Positions 1,037 to 10,745 of a stretch of 64,000 nt of DNA are shown here, piece after piece. The stretch's first letter is position 1, and each line of letters opens with the position of its first letter. The stretch covers positions 11,314-75,313 of the forward strand of contig DYLU01000002.1 in NCBI GenBank assembly GCA_020721905.1, read 5' to 3'. A program made the position numbers and the translations under genes. The DNA comes from Leptospira biflexa (GTDB taxonomy: Bacteria > Spirochaetota > UBA4802 > UB4802). Under the pieces are notes generated by a model that had not been told where the DNA came from, did no database searches, and was given only the letters and a program-made list of their open reading frames with translations.

Positions 1037-3112
1037 ATGGCAGATTCAAAAGATAGCCCCCAGTTTATCAGAAAACGGGATGGCAGGATAGTTCCTTTTA
1101 ATATTGAAAAGATTACAGAAGCAATATTCAAGGCTGCCCGTGCTGTTGGCGGCACTGACAGAAATACTGCAGCTCAAATTGCTAAATCAGTGGTTGATAT
1201 ATTGTCTTTATTATATAAAGGCGAGCATATTCCAACAGTTGAAAATGTTCAGGATTTAGTTGAAAAGATGCTCATAGAAAAAGGGCATGCAAAAGTTGCA
1301 AAAGCCTACATTCTGTACCGTGAACAGCACCGTAAAATACGTGAAGCGAAAAGCCTTTTCAGTGAAGGTATTCAGCTTATTGAAGATTACCTTGACAGAT
1401 CAGACTGGCGTGTAAACGAAAACAGCAATATGAGTTATTCTTTGCAGGGTTTAAACAATCATATTGCATCTGCAGTAACAGCTAAATACTGGCTTGAACG
1501 AATTTATCCTCCCGAAATCAGAGATGCACATGTTAATTGTGATCTTCATTTACATGATTTAGGATTGCTTTCTGCATACTGCGTTGGCTGGGATTTGCGC
1601 GACCTTTTGCTGAGCGGGTTTGGTGGTGTCCCCGGCAAAGTTGAAAGTAAACCTGCAAAACATTTCAGAAGTGCACTGGGACAGATAGTTAATTTTTTCT
1701 ATACCCTGCAGGGTGAATCGGCAGGTGCTCAAGCCTTTGCAAACTTTGATACGTATCTGGCTCCATTCATACGTTACGATAACTTAGATTATGCTGGCGT
1801 AAAACAGTGCCTGCAGGAATTTATTTTCAATATGAATATACCTACCCGTGTAGGATTCCAAACACCATTTACCAATATCACACTTGACCTTACTGTTCCC
1901 CGTTCTATAGCTGATGAACATGTTATCATTGGGGGACAATTCATGGTTGAGACATACGCACAGTTTCAAAAAGAAATGGATATCTTCAATACCGCCTTTG
2001 CTGAATGCATGCTTGAAGGTGATGCTCGCCACAGAATATTCACATTCCCCATACCCACATACAATATCACCAAAGATTTTGACTGGGAAAATCCTGCAAT
2101 AAACCTGCTATGGGAAATTACTGCTAAATATGGTATACCCTATTTTGCAAACTTTGTCAATTCTGACATGGATCCGGATGATGCACGTTCCATGTGCTGC
2201 CGTCTGCGACTTGATAACAGGGAACTACGCAAACGGGGTGGAGGTCTGTTTGGTGCAAATCCACTAACCGGAAGTATTGGTGTAGTAACCATTAATATGC
2301 CGCGTCTTGGATACCTTTCCAAAACAAAAGATGAATTTTTTGACAATCTTGCTCATTTAATGGATTTAGCTCGAAATTCATTGGAAATTAAACGTAAAGT
2401 TCTGGAAAACTTTACTGCTAATAATCTTTATCCTTATACTAGGGTTTATTTACGTGATGTATATCAACGATTCCAAAAATACTGGGTTAATCATTTCTCA
2501 ACTATTGGCCTTGTTGGGATGAACGAAGCCTGCCTTAATCTTTTAGGTCAGGACATAACAACTGAAGAAGGGAAAGAGTTCACTGCTCAGGTACTGGATT
2601 TTATGCGTGATAAAATTACCACCTATCAGCATGAAACGGGTAATTTATATAATCTGGAAGCAACACCTGCTGAGGGAGTAAGTTACCGCTTTGCGCGCCA
2701 TGATAAAAACAAATTCCCGGACATCATAACATCCGGTAAAAATGAGCCATATTATACCAACTCTATTCATCCACCGGTAGGATTTGCTCATGATATATTT
2801 GATTTGCTGGATCACCAGGATCAACTGCAGACAAAATTCACCGGGGGCACGGTAGTTCATTGCTTTTTAGGTGAAAAGATTGATGATCCGCAGATGGTTA
2901 AACTTCTGGTTAAAACCATTGCTTTTAACTACCATATACCATATTTTACCATTACGCCAACGTTCAGTATTTGTCCTGTTCATGGGTATATTCCGGGCAA
3001 TCATAAATTTTGTCCTTATGAGCATACAAAAGAAGAACTTGAGATGTTTGGCATAGATGTCGAAATTGAAGATAAAAAGCCATTGCAGATTGAAACACAG
3101 ATACAGCAGTAA
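1037..3112 (+). CDS. nrdD: anaerobic ribonucleoside-triphosphate reductase (class III RNR) large subunit, lacking the glycyl-radical tail
   Basis: N-terminal ATP-cone (FIRKRDGRIVPFNIEKITEAIFKA). Typical NrdD body motifs. C-terminal metal-site region ICPVHGYIPGNHKFCPYEH. Ends at TAA 3110-3112 before any RxxGY glycyl-radical motif. SD ggag upstream of ATG. Confidence 0.9.
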   Translation: MADSKDSPQFIRKRDGRIVPFNIEKITEAIFKAARAVGGTDRNTAAQIAKSVVDILSLLYKGEHIPTVENVQDLVEKMLIEKGHAKVAKAYILYREQHRKIREAKSLFSEGIQLIEDYLDRSDWRVNENSNMSYSLQGLNNHIASAVTAKYWLERIYPPEIRDAHVNCDLHLHDLGLLSAYCVGWDLRDLLLSGFGGVPGKVESKPAKHFRSALGQIVNFFYTLQGESAGAQAFANFDTYLAPFIRYDNLDYAGVKQCLQEFIFNMNIPTRVGFQTPFTNITLDLTVPRSIADEHVIIGGQFMVETYAQFQKEMDIFNTAFAECMLEGDARHRIFTFPIPTYNITKDFDWENPAINLLWEITAKYGIPYFANFVNSDMDPDDARSMCCRLRLDNRELRKRGGGLFGANPLTGSIGVVTINMPRLGYLSKTKDEFFDNLAHLMDLARNSLEIKRKVLENFTANNLYPYTRVYLRDVYQRFQKYWVNHFSTIGLVGMNEACLNLLGQDITTEEGKEFTAQVLDFMRDKITTYQHETGNLYNLEATPAEGVSYRFARHDKNKFPDIITSGKNEPYYTNSIHPPVGFAHDIFDLLDHQDQLQTKFTGGTVVHCFLGEKIDDPQMVKLLVKTIAFNYHIPYFTITPTFSICPVHGYIPGNHKFCPYEHTKEELEMFGIDVEIEDKKPLQIETQIQQ

Positions 3113-3154
3113 GAAATTTATAATTTTGTTACTATATTAAACGGGGGTTACATA

Positions 3155-3346
3155 ATGCAAAAGCACCACGAAAAAAAAATACCTGTTGAAGTATATTCAA
3201 GGGTTGTTGGGTATTTCAGACCAGTTAACCAATGGAATAAAGGAAAACAGGAAGAATTTCAAGAAAGAAAAGAGTTTATGAAAGATGAATTATTTAAGGT
3301 AGCCACACATGAATATTCGGGGTATTCAAAAAACCTCACTCATTGA
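3155..3346 (+). CDS. stand-alone glycyl-radical module of NrdD (63 aa), in-frame with nrdD after a TAA stop
   Basis: Translation VYSRVVGYFRPVNQWNKGKQEEFQERKEF matches the conserved NrdD C-terminal glycyl-radical motif (SRVxGY...NxGKQxE). Own SD gggggt 7 nt upstream of ATG 3155. Same reading frame as nrdD, with 14 codons including TAA between them. Overlaps the nrdG start by 38 nt. Confidence 0.6.
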   Translation: MQKHHEKKIPVEVYSRVVGYFRPVNQWNKGKQEEFQERKEFMKDELFKVATHEYSGYSKNLTH

Positions 3347-4004
3347 CTTTCCGCAGGTTATTAGCACTGTCCTTTTTACCGGTGGATGCAATTTACGCTG
3401 TCTTTACTGCCATAATGCATCATTGGCGTGCAATGACTGTAATTTGCAACAATATTCAAACCATGAGGTGCTGGAATTTTTACATAAACGAAAGCACCTT
3501 ATTGGTGGTGTTGTCATTACCGGTGGTGAACCAACACTTGCAAAGGGTATAATTCCCTTTTTAGAAAAGGTAAAAGAAACAGGATTAAAAGTAAAATTGG
3601 ACACTAATGGATTTCAGCCTCAGGTGTTAAAAAAAATACTGTCACAAAGGCTTGTTGACTACATAGCAATAGATATTAAAACATCACCAGAAAAATATCC
3701 AGTATTGACAAGAACAAAACTTTCATTTGATTTAATCATGAAATCTATTGCACTGCTCAAAGAACACCACGTAACATTTGAACTCAGGACAACCTGTGTA
3801 CCAGGGTTTGTAACCATTGAAGATTTTCAAGGTATAAAAGAGCGTGTGGGTAATGTTATGTATTATTATCTGCAGCAATTTGATAACCAGCACACACTGG
3901 ATGAATCGCTTCGCACAGTTAAACCTTACCCTAAAGATGTTTTATATTCATTCCAGCAGTTTGTAAAAACATTTGCTACCATTTGTGAAATTCGGGGATT
4001 ATAA
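3309..4004 (+). CDS. nrdG: anaerobic ribonucleotide reductase activating protein (radical SAM)
   Basis: CNLRCLYCHN radical-SAM cysteine motif near the N-terminus. GGEPTL SAM-binding motif. Immediately downstream of nrdD. Confidence 0.85.
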   Translation: MNIRGIQKTSLIDFPQVISTVLFTGGCNLRCLYCHNASLACNDCNLQQYSNHEVLEFLHKRKHLIGGVVITGGEPTLAKGIIPFLEKVKETGLKVKLDTNGFQPQVLKKILSQRLVDYIAIDIKTSPEKYPVLTRTKLSFDLIMKSIALLKEHHVTFELRTTCVPGFVTIEDFQGIKERVGNVMYYYLQQFDNQHTLDESLRTVKPYPKDVLYSFQQFVKTFATICEIRGL

Positions 4005-4075
4005 AAAATCTGTTGACATTACCTGATATCATTTTTTCTGTGTTATGTATTAATTTCAGGGAGGACAAATAATTT

Positions 4076-4171
4076 ATGAGCAAGCAGTATAGTCCACGCA
4101 TTAAGCGCAAACGTGCAAAACGAAGACTCAAAAGAAAGAAAAAAATGCTGGCAAAAAAGTTATCTAAATAG
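4076..4171 (+). CDS. 31-aa highly basic micro-protein (MSKQYSPRIKRKRAKRRLKRKKKMLAKKLSK)
   Basis: ATG at 4076 is preceded by a strong SD (gggagga) at 4059-4065. 17 of 31 residues are Arg/Lys. Stop TAG at 4169-4171. Below the 60-aa cutoff of the ORF track. Confidence 0.35.
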   Translation: MSKQYSPRIKRKRAKRRLKRKKKMLAKKLSK

Positions 4172-4173
4172 CA

Positions 4174-6855
4174 TTACTTATTTTTAGATTTCAGAATAAT
4201 CTCATCACCAACAACAAGCAGGATGTTATCAATATCAATTTTATCAGAAGAGGGATATGTAGCATTACAGGTAAGCCATATCCCTTTTTCATTACTAAGT
4301 GGTATATACAAGAGCACCGTATCAAAGTATAATCGATTATCCTTGTTCTTCTTGTCAATAAATCTGCTTGAATGGGAACAACCAAAGGCAATATATGACA
4401 TGATCCCATTTTTTGCAAGCATGTAGCGTAAATACAGTATTGCATCAAGCTGTGTGCCTTTCCCTGATCTAGAAAATTGCAAAAGCGATGTAGCTCTATA
4501 AGGGGTGGGATTTATGGTATATTGTTTCAGTTTCCCCATAAGCTCTGATATGATTTCTTCAAATGTCTTCCCGTTTAATTCAGTTTCAGTAAGAAAATAA
4601 TCTGCAATTTTAAAATGCAAACTTTCTTCATTAATCCATTCAATCAGGTTTTCAGATGTAAGCGCCATTATCATAAAATTCCTGTTATTATGTGCCGATA
4701 GTTCATAGGCATTAAATCTGATGTGCTGTATGCCATGCTCTTCTTTTGTAACATTGCCCTGCAATTCTGATACTATAACAGGCTCAACCTGTGAACCCAT
4801 AACAACAATATCCATATCAAATTGCGATAGATTATAATTCTGCTGGATGTGCACTACAGGAATTCCCTTGTTTATAATAAATGATAGTTCCACCAGGGCA
4901 TAGCTGTTCAGGTTTTTATCAAAACATGCCTTAATTCCCCTTTGCAGTGAATTGTTTAAATATTTTATTTTCTTTTTTTCAATCTTTCCGTTTTCACTAA
5001 CCAGGTATATTGTACATCCTGTTATTGTTACATCGCTACCAAAAGCATAATCATTTACCTGTGATGAACTGCCAGTATAATACAGGTCATAAATTGAACA
5101 ATATGCAGTATTATTAATAAATCGTAATGCATAACAAGAATACAGCAGGCCATTAGTTTTTCCTTGTATAGTTTCAAAGGCTAATCGTGAAAAAACATTT
5201 TGATACACATAATCATCAAAAGCATTCTTCAAATAATCACTATGCCATGGTATATCAGAAACTATCACCTCATGCTTCTTGCGGTACATGCTTCCATCAG
5301 ATTCTTCCAGATCAGCTATTGTTGCCAGCAATGCATATGCATGTGAATCAAATCCCCGGGCTATTCTTTTAAACAATACACTTTTTGCATCATTGTATCG
5401 CTTTAATGCCACGAGCGCATGTATATATTTATCAAAAAATCTACTTTCATTATTGTGCTCAACAACAGATACTATCGATCCAAACTGCTCATTCTGCTCA
5501 TAATATTGAATTAATAAAGCTGTAACTTTATCATCTGGGTCTGGTATTGATTCTAATATACTGATGGCTTTTTCAATGTCATGGTATGCTGTAATTTGAG
5601 CAACGATATAAGCAAGATCATTACTGTAAGGATACTCTTTTAACAAAGATTCAAGATTTGCTCTTTTATTAATCAGTACATCTTTTTCTCTATACAACAG
5701 ATAAATCAATAATGGTAGATAATGCCCTTGATTGGCATCAAAAGATTTCTTTAGATATATATAATCATAGTAGCTTTGCCATAATACTGATCTAAACTTT
5801 TCATTATTTTTTAGTAAACTTTGCATTACCAGCTCATATCCCAAAACCTTGTTTTCATATTTATATTTCATCAATAGAGATAAAAATCTGCAGGCTGCTA
5901 ACTCATTGTATGAGTGTAAAGCTTCTTTATAATATTTCAATGCTTCATAACTTTGCAGCGATTCATAAAAAAGCGCAAGTTTAAAAGCCGGATCATTGGA
6001 ACGCTGCTTATTATACTGTGTAAGCAATTGATTTTCATATTCATAATATGTTTCATACCATTGGACATCATGATAATATGAATTTTCTGTATCAGGTAAA
6101 TGTATACTCTGGTCAGTATCATCATAAAACTGTATTTTCAAAAACATGTCTTCTGCTAGTTTATAATATAGGGCAACTGTAAAGCCGCCTTCAGATTCTA
6201 TATGAAACATCCTGACCAGCTTTTTCTTATCCGTCAGAGCATTAACACATATTTTTTTCCCGTTAATATAACAAACATAATCCATATTTGAATAAATCCT
6301 GAGTGTAACGGGTACACTGGCTTTAAAAGACCCACTGCAAAGGCCAGTAGCGTTATACTCCTGAGTAAATTGCTTAACAGGGATAAAACCATTTTGATAT
6401 TGAAATACACGTACCTTGTTTTTACCTGATAAGAAATAAGGATTATTGGTGCATTGAAGAGCTGCAATGCTTTGCGGCATTTTTTCTTTGATATTATCGT
6501 ATATATCCCATCGATTGTTACCCTTAGTGGCGTCTTTTTGGTGTAACTCATCAATGAGAGTAACAATATCCTGAACATACAGCTTTTCAGCATCTGTATC
6601 AGCACTTCTGATTAATTCTTTAAGTAACAATACTGTCTTACTGACCCCTGCAACTTGTTGTATATGATGAATATCTGCCAGAATTAATGCAGGATCAGCT
6701 TTCCCTGATACTATTTCTTTTTCATACAGTTCTATTATATTGAGTGAATTGCCGTTACAGTATATTTGCTTACTGTCTTTACTGATAACAGGCAGAGCTT
6801 TTACAGGAACTATCGCCACCAGTACAATGGCCGTTACTATTAATAATTTATTCAT
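4174..6855 (-). CDS. large secreted protein (893 aa), TPR-like helical repeats, possible degenerate transglutaminase-like C-terminal region
   Basis: N-terminal signal peptide MNKLLIVTAIVLVAIVPVKA. Long Tyr/Leu-rich helical-repeat middle. C-terminal segment SGKGTQLDAILYLRYMLAKNGI resembles a transglutaminase-like core, but the catalytic Cys is replaced by Thr. Function unknown. Confidence 0.55.
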   Translation of the reverse strand: MNKLLIVTAIVLVAIVPVKALPVISKDSKQIYCNGNSLNIIELYEKEIVSGKADPALILADIHHIQQVAGVSKTVLLLKELIRSADTDAEKLYVQDIVTLIDELHQKDATKGNNRWDIYDNIKEKMPQSIAALQCTNNPYFLSGKNKVRVFQYQNGFIPVKQFTQEYNATGLCSGSFKASVPVTLRIYSNMDYVCYINGKKICVNALTDKKKLVRMFHIESEGGFTVALYYKLAEDMFLKIQFYDDTDQSIHLPDTENSYYHDVQWYETYYEYENQLLTQYNKQRSNDPAFKLALFYESLQSYEALKYYKEALHSYNELAACRFLSLLMKYKYENKVLGYELVMQSLLKNNEKFRSVLWQSYYDYIYLKKSFDANQGHYLPLLIYLLYREKDVLINKRANLESLLKEYPYSNDLAYIVAQITAYHDIEKAISILESIPDPDDKVTALLIQYYEQNEQFGSIVSVVEHNNESRFFDKYIHALVALKRYNDAKSVLFKRIARGFDSHAYALLATIADLEESDGSMYRKKHEVIVSDIPWHSDYLKNAFDDYVYQNVFSRLAFETIQGKTNGLLYSCYALRFINNTAYCSIYDLYYTGSSSQVNDYAFGSDVTITGCTIYLVSENGKIEKKKIKYLNNSLQRGIKACFDKNLNSYALVELSFIINKGIPVVHIQQNYNLSQFDMDIVVMGSQVEPVIVSELQGNVTKEEHGIQHIRFNAYELSAHNNRNFMIMALTSENLIEWINEESLHFKIADYFLTETELNGKTFEEIISELMGKLKQYTINPTPYRATSLLQFSRSGKGTQLDAILYLRYMLAKNGIMSYIAFGCSHSSRFIDKKNKDNRLYFDTVLLYIPLSNEKGIWLTCNATYPSSDKIDIDNILLVVGDEIILKSKNK

Positions 6856-6867
6856 AAAGTTTCAATA

Positions 6868-8235
6868 TCACTTGCCAATGCAAAAGCGTGAAAAAATAGA
6901 ATTCAGAACATCATCAACGGATATTTCACCAGTGACCGCTCCTATTGTATCAATAACATTTTGAAGTGCTGATGCAATAATTTCATGGGGGCTGCTTATG
7001 GCTATATGATGAAGCGCTTCCCGTGCATACTCAAGAGACTGCTCCAGTAATTGTATCATACGAATATCAGCAATAAAAGAATTTTTGTACTCAACATACT
7101 GTGACCTGATAAATTGATATACCGCATCCTCCAGTGCAGGGACACCATAGCCTGTTTTTGCAGAAAACACAATTCCTTTTTGTCCAATAGCATCCTGAAT
7201 TATTGCTATTGATTCTTGTGTTGCAATATCAGTTTTATTAATGACTGGTATAAACGGTTTATTGCTCATTAATTTCATGATATGCTCATCATCAGAAGTA
7301 AGACCCGTTACTGCATCAATGATAAAAATTATCAGTGATACCTCATCTATCAGTTTGTAGCTCCGCTGCACACCTAAAAGTTCAATCCCATCTGCATATT
7401 CATGTATTCCGGCAGTATCAAGCAGATTGCATTGCATACCCTTAATTGAAACCGATTCTTTTATCACATCCCGGGTTGTCCCCGGTGTATCCGATACAAT
7501 TGCCCGTTCATGATTGAGCATACAGTTTAGAAAGCTGGATTTACCTGCATTGGGTTTTCCTACAATTGCAATATCAATACCGTGAGAAAGATGCTGGCCA
7601 ATCCTACATCTGTTAAGTATTTCCTGTAGTTTATCAATGATAGCGAGCATTCTTTGATGTGCATTTTCAAACGATATAATCTCAATATCATCATCCACAA
7701 AGTCAATAGCACATTCAATATCTGCCTTCAATTCAATAATGTTATGTTTAATATCATTGATTGCATTTTTCAGTGACCCATGCTTTTGCTGTATTGCGGT
7801 TGCTATCTCCCATTCACTGCGTGCAGCAATAATATGGTTTATTGCTTCTGCTTCAGTCAGATCCATCTTGCCATGTAAAAATGCCCGTCTGGTAAACTCA
7901 CCCGGTTCAGCTATCCGTACATTCAGTGCAATAATACAATTCATTATTTTATTTACTATGATTGGATTGCCATGGCAGAATATTTCCACCATATCCTCAC
8001 CTGTATAACTTTGCGGGCGTTTATAATAAATGACAATACAATCATCAATTTCTTCATTGTTATCATGAATACTACCGTAATATGCATATCGGGGAATAAA
8101 TTCCCGGGTATGCCCTTGTAGCCTGAATATAGAAGAAGTGACCCGTAAAGAATCAGGGCCGCTTATCCGTATAATGGCTATTGGTGAATGTACTGGCGGG
8201 GTTGCCGGAGCACATATTGTATCATCCATCTGCAT
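6868..8235 (-). CDS. mnmE: tRNA modification GTPase MnmE (TrmE)
   Basis: G-domain motifs GKPNAGKSS and DTAG. C-terminal CIGK tetrapeptide typical of MnmE. Start ATG overlaps the jag stop (TAATG). Confidence 0.9.
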   Translation of the reverse strand: MQMDDTICAPATPPVHSPIAIIRISGPDSLRVTSSIFRLQGHTREFIPRYAYYGSIHDNNEEIDDCIVIYYKRPQSYTGEDMVEIFCHGNPIIVNKIMNCIIALNVRIAEPGEFTRRAFLHGKMDLTEAEAINHIIAARSEWEIATAIQQKHGSLKNAINDIKHNIIELKADIECAIDFVDDDIEIISFENAHQRMLAIIDKLQEILNRCRIGQHLSHGIDIAIVGKPNAGKSSFLNCMLNHERAIVSDTPGTTRDVIKESVSIKGMQCNLLDTAGIHEYADGIELLGVQRSYKLIDEVSLIIFIIDAVTGLTSDDEHIMKLMSNKPFIPVINKTDIATQESIAIIQDAIGQKGIVFSAKTGYGVPALEDAVYQFIRSQYVEYKNSFIADIRMIQLLEQSLEYAREALHHIAISSPHEIIASALQNVIDTIGAVTGEISVDDVLNSIFSRFCIGK

Positions 8236-8873
8236 TACCTTTTTTCTACAGGCATAATTCTTACCTTTCTATAAATGCCCTGTCCCTCACTCCTTGTGGT
8301 AACCTTTGAATCATTCTGCAATGTCAAATGTATAAGCCTGCGTTCAAATGGATTCATGGGCTCTAATGCCCAGGGCTTGCCGGTTCGGGCAACTTTCAAT
8401 GCAATTTCTTTGGATAATTTTCGCAAAGCTTTTTCTCTTTTTGCCCTGTATGATTCAATATCAAGAATTATCTTTTTTTCTGAATTGGTCATTTTATTAA
8501 CCAGAAGGTTAACCATAAACTGCAATGCCTCCAGGGTTTTCCCTTTTTTACCTATAATTAAACCTGAACTAAAGCTTTCCAGTTCAACATATACCTTATT
8601 TTCGCTTTCCTTATAATCTTTAACCCTGGCTTCAACTTCCATCAACATCAAAATCTTTTCAATAATTTCTTTTACCTGTTGGCCAATATCATCTGCCTGT
8701 TGGTAATATACTCGTATTTTAGCAGGGCGTGATATGCCAAAACCAAAGATACCGCTTTTCCCTTCATCCAGCACTTCAATATTGATTTTGTTCATATCAT
8801 TAATTTTTAATAACGATAAGGCTTTCTTTGTTGCTTCTTCAACGGTCTTCCCTTCAATATCTAACACCTTCAT
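8235..8873 (-). CDS. khpB: RNA-binding protein KhpB/Jag (Jag-N, KH and R3H domains)
   Basis: Conserved position between yidC and mnmE. KH/R3H-like sequence (ERRLIHLTLQNDSKVTTRSEG). Start corrected to ATG 8873 (MKVLDIEG) with SD aggagg 7 nt upstream. The track start at 8912 is a TTG. Confidence 0.8.
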   Translation of the reverse strand: MKVLDIEGKTVEEATKKALSLLKINDMNKINIEVLDEGKSGIFGFGISRPAKIRVYYQQADDIGQQVKEIIEKILMLMEVEARVKDYKESENKVYVELESFSSGLIIGKKGKTLEALQFMVNLLVNKMTNSEKKIILDIESYRAKREKALRKLSKEIALKVARTGKPWALEPMNPFERRLIHLTLQNDSKVTTRSEGQGIYRKVRIMPVEKR

Positions 8874-9122: not shown

Positions 9123-10745
9123 TTACTTTTTCCTGCTTAATGTATTAATAAACATCTGATGGCCTATCTGTAATACATTTTGCATAATCCAGTACAACAC
9201 CAGCCCTGAAGGCATATTCCAGAAGATAACAATAAATATTAGCGGCATGAGCATCAACATCTTCTGTTGCTGGGTGGCTTCACCTGAAGACATCTTCTGC
9301 TGCAGATATGTTGTACCTGTCATAATCAGAGGCAATATATTAATATTAAACCCTGCTATCCTGTAAATTGTATCAGGCAATGACAGATCCTTTATCCACA
9401 GAATAAAAGGTGCCTGCCATAAATCTACAGAGTTCACCAACGCACTATAGAGAGCAAAAAAGAAAGGCATCTGCAAAAGCAACGGTAAACACCCGCCCAT
9501 TGGATTCACTTTATTTTTTTTGTATACTTCCATAATCTTTTTATTTAAAACATCAGGCTTATCTTTATACTTTTCACGCAATTCCTGAATTACAGGATTC
9601 AATTCCTGCATTTTCTTCATGGATTCCGTGGAGCGTTGCGTCAGTGGTAAAAACATTATTTTTGTAATAACTGAAAAAATTACCAGTGACCACCCTAAAT
9701 TCCCTACCAGCCTGTTTATTTCAAGCAGGCACCACATCATAAAGTCCCTGATAGGTTCAATCCACTTGCTGACATCTGCAGCATCACCAATGTGCTTATC
9801 AACAGCCAGTAGTTTATCTTTATTCTTTGGACCAACATATACTTTAAAATCATGTGTGATCGTTTCACCGGGTTTCAGTGGTTTGATTGGTACCACAATA
9901 CCCGTCCTGAAGCCAGACTGTTCCCTGTTATCATACACCACACCTGAACCTGCAAAACCCTGTGGTATCATAATTAAAAGATAGTACCTGCTCATTATGC
10001 CAGCCCATTGTACCACACCGTTTTCACGTTTAAGGTCTTCCGGTGTAGAAAAGAATCCGCCACCCTTTCGTGCTTTTTCAAAACTGTCATCTATATAATA
10101 AATACTGTATAACTCATTATATGAATTATCAAAATCCATTGATGGCCCTAAAAAATCAGACGGGGAAAATATTACACCCCCTTCAGGAAATGTAAATTCG
10201 TTTTGCCCTTTATTTGTGATAGCATACGATACAACAAAATATTGTCCTGTTTCGTTATACGTAAATTTCTTTGAAATTTCCAGTCGATTTTTTTGTACGA
10301 TAGCAACTGTGGAAAAGTGCACTGCCGATCCATCTTTTTGCATTTTCCATAATACTGGCGGTATATCCTTTGCATGCAAAAATTCCCCCGTTGAAAAATG
10401 AACAGGGAAATCAAAAAATCCTTTTGCATCAAATTTTGATTGAGTTACAATTAATTCAATCTTTCTTACTTTATCAATAAACGATGTACATTGCCCATCT
10501 TCATTGGAAAGTACTGCTGTATAGTATTTTGCATCAATAGTAACATCTTCCTTTTTTGAAGATGCTTGCTGAAGTTTTGAAACGACAGAAATTTCAGGTT
10601 TTTGTATTTCTTCAGTTTGCACTGTTTCAGGTTCAGCACTTTTTTCCGGGATTGGGGCTGTTTTTTCCTGTGGTTGAAAGAAATAAAACCACAGTATCCA
10701 TATTCCCAGTGATAATAACACAGCAATCAAAGCCCTTTTTTCCAT
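9123..10745 (-). CDS. yidC: membrane protein insertase YidC (540 aa)
   Basis: N-terminal TM segment, large periplasmic domain, C-terminal 5-TM core with the GGCLPLLLQMPFFFALY motif. Confidence 0.9.
   Translation of the reverse strand: MEKRALIAVLLSLGIWILWFYFFQPQEKTAPIPEKSAEPETVQTEEIQKPEISVVSKLQQASSKKEDVTIDAKYYTAVLSNEDGQCTSFIDKVRKIELIVTQSKFDAKGFFDFPVHFSTGEFLHAKDIPPVLWKMQKDGSAVHFSTVAIVQKNRLEISKKFTYNETGQYFVVSYAITNKGQNEFTFPEGGVIFSPSDFLGPSMDFDNSYNELYSIYYIDDSFEKARKGGGFFSTPEDLKRENGVVQWAGIMSRYYLLIMIPQGFAGSGVVYDNREQSGFRTGIVVPIKPLKPGETITHDFKVYVGPKNKDKLLAVDKHIGDAADVSKWIEPIRDFMMWCLLEINRLVGNLGWSLVIFSVITKIMFLPLTQRSTESMKKMQELNPVIQELREKYKDKPDVLNKKIMEVYKKNKVNPMGGCLPLLLQMPFFFALYSALVNSVDLWQAPFILWIKDLSLPDTIYRIAGFNINILPLIMTGTTYLQQKMSSGEATQQQKMLMLMPLIFIVIFWNMPSGLVLYWIMQNVLQIGHQMFINTLSRKK

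Follow-up and report, generated by a model that had tools for sequence, protein, structure and literature searches.

A candidate two-subunit class III ribonucleotide reductase with its glycyl-radical loop on a separate 63-residue peptide

A 64,000-nucleotide (nt) stretch of the Leptospira biflexa assembly GCA_020721905.1 (contig DYLU01000002.1, positions 11,314 to 75,313 of the forward strand; hereafter the window) carries three closely packed genes for a class III ribonucleotide reductase (RNR). Two of them correspond to what is canonically a single nrdD gene: nrdD-large encodes the catalytic subunit and ends before the glycyl-radical motif, and nrdD-small encodes a peptide of 63 amino acids (aa) that contains it. 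The third gene, nrdG, encodes the radical-SAM activase (Table 1). We read the locus as a heteromeric class III RNR encoded by one operon, in which a separate glycyl-radical subunit would be activated by NrdG and dock in trans onto the large subunit; from the comparative sequence data presented below, the probability of this reading is put at roughly 0.8. The original prediction for this DNA had proposed such a naturally split enzyme with a trans-acting radical subunit as one of three possibilities, the others being readthrough of the nrdD stop codon and a sequencing error or pseudogene. The comparative data support the first and speak against the other two.

Two halves of one NrdD chain

The nrdD-large product, built of an ATP-cone and the alpha/beta barrel, matched positions 1-530 of the 562 in Pfam family NRDD (PF13597; E-value 1e-181) and positions 4-652 of the 684 in NCBIfam model NF006126, with 1055 bits for a cutoff of 548. 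Models of class I and class II RNRs, including NrdJ, matched its ATP-cone only, far under their cutoffs. The finger-loop motif SMCCRLRLD resembles the SCCR motif described for NrdD of the Thermotoga maritima type (PMC4493059), and Cys388 within it (SMCC388RLRLD) is presumed to be the thiyl-radical cysteine. Near the C-terminus lies a predicted metal-binding site (CPVH...CPYEH) with the ligand pattern Cys, His, Cys, His, and the chain ends 28 residues after it. No R..GY motif occurs anywhere in the 691 residues, in agreement with the original prediction that the gene stops (TAA, 3110-3112) just after its Cys/His site without the glycyl-radical signature.

This signature is found in nrdD-small. 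As had been described correctly at the outset, the small open reading frame (ORF) starts at an ATG (position 3155) lying 14 codons past the nrdD-large stop in the same frame, has its own Shine-Dalgarno sequence (GGGGG, at a spacing of 7 nt) and overlaps the beginning of nrdG (by 38 nt). It encodes ...YSRVVGYFRPVNQWNKGKQEEFQERKEF..., with a conserved core at residues 9-40 (3179-3274), IPVEVYSRVVGYFRPVNQWNKGKQEEFQERKE. The peptide matched the last 32 positions of Pfam NRDD (531-562 of 562, E-value 3e-10), bearing out the C-terminal glycyl-radical motif (RVVG19Y) that had been recognized from the sequence alone, and positions 651-682 of the 684 in NF006126, resuming where the match of nrdD-large stops. 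When aligned with T. maritima NrdD, nrdD-large covers residues 100-611 and the peptide residues 613-645; in the profile alignment Gly19 falls on Gly621, the radical site of that enzyme (PMC4493059). The two halves together make up the whole family profile from end to end and are colinear with the fused enzyme. No terminator-like site was seen on the plus strand between positions 700 and 4300, and none separates the three genes.

The position of the break was deduced from single-chain relatives. Fused NrdDs about 60% identical to nrdD-large were found on viral contigs and in one INPHARED record. Their junction reads PYFTI[ST]PTF[ST].C..[HC]GY..G....C(2-4 residues)C-x(3-5)-E[VI]YSR[IV]VGY.RPV, EVYSR following the last metal ligand after 3-5 residues, and the split form reads ...PYFTITPTFSICPVHGYIPGNHKFCPYEH + TKEELEMFGIDVE...*, then M...KKIP + VEVYSRVVGYFRPV.... 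From this comparison, the fission falls within those 3-5 residues, before the strand that enters the glycine loop. The last metal ligand is His in the split subfamily and Cys in the closest fused relatives (CPKC, CPMC, CTAC). The new ends at the break amount to about 15-30 aa on the large side, some 12 of them conserved, and to 5-12 aa on the small side, where the peptide begins with a short basic leader. On these alignments, the ancestral single-chain NrdD was cut after the second knuckle of the metal site and before the strand leading to the glycyl-radical loop.

Table 1. Features of the split nrdD operon in the window, and orphan peptide genes in other loci (coordinates of each locus).
Sequence	Feature	Position	Strand	Description	Basis or context
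Window	nrdD-large, nrdD-small, nrdG	1037..4004	+	three closely packed genes	ORF calls
Window	nrdD-large	1037..3112	+	691 aa, 79.1 kDa, class III RNR catalytic subunit	Pfam, NCBIfam
Window	ATP-cone of nrdD-large	1064..1333	+	residues 10-99	PF03477, E-value 2.9e-24
Window	Finger-loop motif SMCCRLRLD	2189..2215	+	residues 385-393	aligns with GCR cysteine of chain 8p23_A
Window	C-terminal metal-site motif	2972..3025	+	CPVH (646-649) ... CPYEH (659-663)	alignment
Window	C-terminal extension of nrdD-large	3026..3109	+	conserved part, then variable tail	tail alignment
Window	Stop of nrdD-large	3110..3112	+	TAA	sequence
Window	Spacer nrdD-large/nrdD-small	3113..3154	+	42 nt, with Shine-Dalgarno GGGGG at 3143-3147	
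Window	nrdD-small	3155..3346	+	63 aa, 7.7 kDa, predicted glycyl-radical peptide	Pfam NRDD
Window	Gly19 codon	3209..3211	+	GGG; predicted radical glycine in RVVG19Y	profile alignment
Window	nrdD-small/nrdG overlap	3309..3346	+	38 nt, different frames	
Window	nrdG	3309..4004	+	231-aa radical-SAM activase	TIGR02495 NrdG2, E-value 1e-60; Radical_SAM and Fer4_12 (Pfam)
Window	CX3CX2C cluster motif of NrdG	3387..3410	+	residues 27-34	
L053	Orphan copy	4001-4123		genome of L007	Mu-like prophage early region: transposition B, Gam, gp16-like
L070	Orphan copy	1831-2007		genome of L022	among endolysin, transglycosylase and phrog_2045 protein
L071	Orphan copy	4001-4174			
L076	Orphan copy	4001-4159			

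Conservation of the split arrangement in two phyla

A search of 5.8 billion proteins returned 701 homologues of the peptide; the best 120 were all 44-96 aa long, and those with a name came from metagenome-assembled genomes (MAGs) of Spirochaetota. In a profile search of 1.84 billion representatives at 50% identity there were 4650 matches, 1733 of them at E <= 1e-10, and the best 150 were all 47-192 aa long. Relatives of the peptide were encoded by 140 genome stretches (one genome per GTDB species), the best 80 all from Spirochaetota or Leptospirales MAGs. Pfam, NCBIfam and PHROGs contain no family dedicated to the stand-alone peptide; models of full-length NrdD were the only ones to match it, weakly and at their C-terminal end. 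Gly19 is invariant in all homologues. Over 104 distinct core sequences, the proportion of synonymous differences (pS) was 0.88, near saturation, and that of nonsynonymous differences (pN) 0.12; the median ratio of nonsynonymous to synonymous rates (dN/dS) was 0.05 (at a pS of 0.87) for operon copies and, for viral copies, 0.10. Given this low ratio and the 21 invariant core residues found over 41 peptide homologues, the profile match is judged to be far beyond chance.

The large subunit was followed in 240 homologues, namely the best 120 retrieved with the window's protein (674-713 aa, at least 74% identity) and the best 120 retrieved with an Anaerolineae protein (see below). Essentially every one has the metal-site pattern CP[VI]H-x(8-10)-CPxxH, and none has a C-terminal RxxG[YF] motif (0/120 Spirochaetota, 0/120 Anaerolineae). 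An alignment of the tails from 80 loci and 120 Anaerolineae proteins revealed that the metal site is followed by a conserved extension, H[TS]xEELxx[FY]G[IV]E, represented in the window by EELEMFG (3032-3052). The original prediction had raised the question of whether relatives share the stop. They do: besides the lack of the glycine motif from all 240 large subunits, the core motif of the peptide has a stop less than 45 codons upstream in 84 of its 85 occurrences. Judged from substitution patterns and alignments, both halves are under strong purifying selection in Spirochaetota and Anaerolineae.

These data bear directly on the possibility that the locus reflects an error in sequencing or assembly, or a gene that recently became a pseudogene. 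In favor of such an origin, nothing is seen beyond a stop inside a normally continuous gene. However, the identical 63-aa product is found on independent assemblies and sources (Logan, JGI, NCBI), the cluster at 90% identity around the window's peptide having 17 members on dozens of contigs; over 70 species share the break, as do 240 protein clusters, at a dN/dS of 0.05; and conserved extensions were gained on both of its sides. Because independent assemblies, conservation throughout the clade and purifying selection all point the same way, the probability left for an artefact or a pseudogene is next to nil.

The arrangement of the genes was surveyed in 72 species-level loci with an adjoining large subunit. 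The order large subunit, small ORF, nrdG was kept throughout. The overlap between the small ORF and nrdG falls into classes of 23 nt (40 loci), 38 nt (23 loci) and 50 nt (5 loci), and nrdD-small is coupled to nrdG by this conserved overlap. Programmed readthrough or frameshifting at the nrdD stop, yielding one fused NrdD with a long linker, could be entertained for the window and for loci L003-L006, L009 and L013, where both ORFs lie in one frame with no second stop between them. Across the survey, however, frames 0, +1 and +2 relative to nrdD occur 20, 31 and 21 times (chi-square p = 0.21), and peptides 94-98% identical to that of the window are found in frame +2 (L007) or +1 (L008, L010). 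The gap between the nrdD stop and the small ORF varies from 16 to 371 nt (median 64.5), and in one Anaerolineae locus the small ORF instead overlaps the end of the large ORF by 32 nt; three stop codons are in use (TAA 55, TAG 10, TGA 7); and each small ORF has its own ATG, preceded at 3-18 nt by a Shine-Dalgarno-like motif (72/72). Moreover, orphan copies of the peptide gene occur without any nrdD upstream (see below), and an Rfam scan of the whole window gave no match, hence no known recoding or riboswitch element. As frames are random, gaps variable, and a Shine-Dalgarno-like motif and ATG present everywhere, readthrough was rejected as hardly credible, and the two halves are read as being translated independently of each other. 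The in-frame TAA to which the original prediction drew attention does exist, but its position in frame is, by the survey, a coincidence and not a meaningful feature.

The split form extends to a second phylum. The divergent peptide PCEVYSRIVGYLRPVQNWNKGKQQEF led to loci of Anaerolineae (Chloroflexota) with the order nrdR, nrdD (689 aa), small ORF (55 aa), nrdG; another Anaerolineae contig carries nrdR, nrdD (677 aa), small ORF (48 aa) and nrdG. The 689-aa large subunit shares 62% identity with that of the window and ends with the same kind of tail, CPVH...CPYDH-SEEDLERFG. Its best 120 homologues came from Anaerolineae or Chloroflexi MAGs wherever a name was given, and the tail motif was present in all of them but one variant (P0474). 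By these alignments the split enzyme is a distinct, conserved NrdD subfamily occurring in at least Spirochaetota and Chloroflexota.

Several large subunits from Anaerolineae (P0443, P0445, P0459, P0477, P0508 and P0510; 1002-1148 aa) contain an insertion of about 330-470 aa that divides the NRDD match. These insertions are probably inteins, and in the one protein scanned with Pfam (P0443) the insert matched no named family. Such insertions lend some color to the idea of a post-translational rejoining of the two polypeptides, whether through a split intein or through some other ligation. Against this, the extensions at the break (about 15-30 aa and 5-12 aa) are far too short for the halves of a split intein, no intein family was matched on either ORF of the window, and orphan peptides have unrelated N-termini; rejoining is regarded as very improbable.

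Some further observations concern the neighborhood of the operon and the ends of the peptide. The split operon of Anaerolineae has nrdR (Zn_ribbon_NrdR plus ATP-cone; L118:1309-1767, L201:2498-2956) in front of it; the window has no such gene immediately upstream of the operon. Directly downstream of the window's nrdG lies an 893-aa ORF on the minus strand (4174-6855) with no Pfam match, kept beside the operon in locus L001, where mnmE comes next. One Spirochaetota MAG (L030) has two peptide genes in tandem between nrdD-large and nrdG (59 aa, 3764-3943; 57 aa, 3998-4171), and the second copy alone overlaps nrdG and retains an EYQG tail. The motif EY[SQK]G near the peptide's C-terminus was considered as a second functional element and dismissed, since it is an out-of-frame shadow of the NrdG N-terminus (MNI[RK]G) and is absent from orphan and phage copies. 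On a 1.8-Mb Anaerolineae contig (L200:5233-6189) the peptide is in frame with NrdG, as a 318-aa protein with a linker of about 40 aa. This fusion was not relied on as a Rosetta-stone link: in other assemblies, close relatives belonging to its 90% cluster have separate proteins of 59 and 267 aa, and it may represent an indel in a long-read assembly.

Stand-alone copies in prophages and viral contigs

Four of the 80 genome loci (L053, L070, L071 and L076; Table 1) are orphan second copies of the peptide gene, with no nrdD-large or nrdG nearby, in genomes that also hold the canonical split operon. Viral contigs (IMG/VR loci L087-L112 and L121-L199) gave the same picture. A first scan of IMG/VR yielded 26 loci, in all of which the peptide ORF stands alone within +-6 kb, and a broader scan found relatives of the peptide encoded in at least 570 stretches. 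Among the best 80 of the latter, 59 contain an orphan ORF of at most 150 aa in whose surroundings (+-10 kb) neither a large subunit nor nrdG occurs; the other 21 comprise four with a small ORF and, on the same stretch, a large subunit, four fused NrdDs, three of intermediate length and ten that could not be parsed by pattern. The GC content of the viral loci ranges from about 30 to 60%. No recurrent partner gene was found beside the phage orphans, whose neighbors (terminase, DnaB, methylases, amidase, SLT, exonuclease) are unrelated. INPHARED phage genomes gave two matches only, a fused NrdD and a coding sequence (CDS) of the archaeal virus ANMV-1, indicating that the phage copies are essentially confined to uncultured viral contigs. 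The ANMV-1 CDS (KP703175, AJP62049; L113:4680-5114) encodes 144 aa, ...CEMYSRIVGYLRPVNQWNKGK..., under the product name 'anaerobic ribonucleoside triphosphate reductase'.

Stand-alone forms vary in what accompanies the glycine loop. Some, including the ANMV-1 protein, have a zinc-ribbon-like region ahead of the loop and correspond to the whole C-terminal domain of NrdD; others have a CxCGG...CxxC zinc ribbon after the loop, in an order opposite to that of NrdD. Such variants are P0153, P0155, P0180, P0215, L113, L147, L167, L172, L185 and L196, and a form with the second knuckle only is exemplified by P0253, MICCGEPCEVYSR. A single protein, P0243 (192 aa, on a 1.6-kb Logan contig), is an N-terminal fusion of the peptide to a dCMP deaminase (NRDD 526-562 plus dCMP_cyt_deam_1; phrog_174). 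Some large phage contigs (95-122 kb; L190, L153, L142/L144) appear to hold the split system. In L190 the large subunit (6480-8606) is separated from the peptide gene (9974-10132) by about 1.4 kb with small ORFs in between, and in L153 (1151-1813, 6726-9935, ~10034) the 1069-aa size of the large subunit suggests an insertion, possibly an intein.

It might be supposed that the stand-alone peptides, especially those of phages, serve as inhibitory decoys and not as cofactors, titrating NrdG or obstructing the host NrdD's barrel. This explanation would concern the orphans and not the operon in the window. Although it could account for the absence of an activase, a reductase or any conserved neighbor alongside the orphans, the phage copies, too, keep the radical glycine and its flanks without variation, and both the complete split system on some large phage contigs and the one fusion to dCMP deaminase point to nucleotide supply. 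Phages, moreover, normally raise the supply of deoxynucleoside triphosphates (dNTPs). A decoy role is thought distinctly improbable. The peptide gene is under selection even when apart from the large subunit and nrdG (viral dN/dS 0.10), and an independent function of the peptide is plausible. By analogy with GrcA, a small protein that stands in for the radical loop of pyruvate formate-lyase (PFL), the lone prophage and phage copies suggest an exchangeable radical module for RNR.

With a confidence only slightly better than even, we extend the interpretation beyond the window: class III RNR would have an unrecognized two-subunit form in which the radical resides on a free peptide of about 6-8 kDa, a peptide that would also circulate as a lone auxiliary gene in many phages and prophages, sometimes joined to a zinc ribbon or a dCMP deaminase. 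No autonomous glycyl-radical cofactor would have been known before it except for the formate lyases, and its production, activation, disposal after oxygen damage and exchange between virus and host would all be independent of the 79-kDa enzyme body.

Proposed working and relation to known systems

At the window's locus the peptide appears to be obligate and not a spare, since it is the sole radical loop beside its enzyme. One may object that it is only a spare part or a regulator, with the working class III RNR being a fused NrdD encoded elsewhere, or with the large subunit obtaining its radical by other means. The existence of orphan copies indicates that the peptide can be used away from the operon, and the search for a second nrdD covered the 64-kb window, where none was found. 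The large subunit, however, is maintained at 74% identity or more within each phylum and 62% between them; it retains the ATP-cone, the finger-loop cysteines and the metal site, and it is always followed by the peptide and by nrdG with the conserved overlap, a pattern that marks a single functional unit. Nor would an activase make sense with no glycine substrate beside it. A purely accessory role is consequently considered unlikely.

In the split enzyme as we picture it, NrdG would take a hydrogen atom from Gly19 of the free 7.7-kDa peptide, and the activated loop would then occupy the barrel formed by the 79-kDa subunit, facing SMCC388R, as the attached loop does in the NrdDs of T. maritima and phage T4. 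Both steps are modeled on the homologous enzymes, as is the nucleotide reduction that would follow by the ordinary class III route. In glycyl-radical enzymes the buried glycine loop must exit the barrel to meet the activase. It seems conceivable, extrapolating from GrcA, that a detached loop would be directly open to NrdG and that, upon oxygen damage, only the 63-aa peptide would have to be replaced. The peptide made by a phage or prophage would presumably load the host NrdD during infection.

Several points weigh against this interpretation. All carriers of the split system are MAGs or metagenome contigs, and the case is built on sequence comparison. An AlphaFold2 run on the concatenated chains, for which 36 large and 39 small subunits were aligned in blocks, gave a predicted TM-score (pTM) of 0.62 and a mean predicted local distance difference test score (pLDDT) of 69.5, the finger loop and residues 642-754 being below a pLDDT of 50. 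A second run, with 67 Anaerolineae large subunits added, raised the pTM to 0.72 and still left the peptide (692-754) below a pLDDT of 50. The barrel was modeled and the peptide remained unplaced; as the alignments were block-diagonal, this counts at most as weak negative evidence on docking, which the modeling neither supports nor contradicts. Furthermore, the obligate role is deduced from the locus, the suggested advantages in repair and exchange are argued by analogy with GrcA, and the claim to novelty extends to open-access papers and bioRxiv only. Within that literature no mention of a split NrdD or of an NrdD spare part was found, in keeping with the original prediction's impression that such a system had not been described. 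Current annotation pipelines label the large subunit 'ribonucleoside triphosphate reductase', as if it were complete, and leave the peptide unnamed or give it the name of the full enzyme, which makes the split architecture invisible in databases. If the interpretation is correct, the peptide would provide a minimal substrate for NrdG and a clean system for studying loop docking and radical transfer, and its phage copies would make up a novel class of auxiliary gene through which phages act on the supply of dNTPs in anoxic habitats.

By sequence, the split enzyme belongs to the same family as canonical single-chain NrdD with its NrdG (T. maritima, 4COI/4U3E; phage T4, 1H78; NF006126/PRK08270, PF13597). 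The ATP-cone, the barrel, the finger-loop cysteines, the C-terminal metal site, the RVxGY loop and the adjoining radical-SAM activase are shared. The differences lie in the placement of the radical loop on a separate 63-aa chain, in the fourth metal ligand, which is His and not Cys, and in the extensions at both new termini.

A functional parallel can be drawn with the Escherichia coli protein GrcA/YfiD and with phage T4's Y06I, likewise small proteins with the radical loop only, presumably activated by the activase of the enzyme they serve and acting in trans; in both cases, too, phages carry such a gene by itself. Oxygen cuts glycyl-radical enzymes at the radical glycine, and these proteins replace the piece lost from PFL (PMC8683613). 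nrdD-small differs from them in being homologous to NrdD and not to PFL, with no match to Pfam Gly_radical (PF01228), and its product, at about 7.7 kDa, is half the size of GrcA (14 kDa). The likeness to GrcA put forward in the original prediction is only partial: true stand-alone spare copies are those of prophages and phages, and the window's peptide, whose partner has no radical loop of its own, appears to be no backup for an oxygen-cleaved full-length enzyme. The authors of the 2021 YfiD study remarked that spare parts 'may exist for other GREs' (glycyl-radical enzymes; PMC8683613), and according to a 2026 review such proteins are known for formate lyases only (PMC13450708). A detached RNR radical loop, if real, would answer this published question about GrcA equivalents for other glycyl-radical enzymes.

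Two other systems invite comparison. The ANMV-1 CDS is an annotated, virus-borne, stand-alone C-terminal module of NrdD with no reductase body nearby; it differs from nrdD-small in the zinc-ribbon-like region before its glycine loop and in belonging to an archaeal virus. In the split class II enzyme NrdJa/NrdJb of Pseudomonas aeruginosa, in the account of Crona et al. 2015 as cited in PMC9669993, the catalytic chain is also encoded by two consecutive genes, and a C-terminal functional module, which there includes a zinc-finger region, resides on the second polypeptide. To the extent of that account the likeness is architectural only, since NrdJa/NrdJb uses adenosylcobalamin as its cofactor and is broken at another site, and NrdJb is a large, folded protein without a radical site, unlike the glycyl-radical peptide proposed here for class III.

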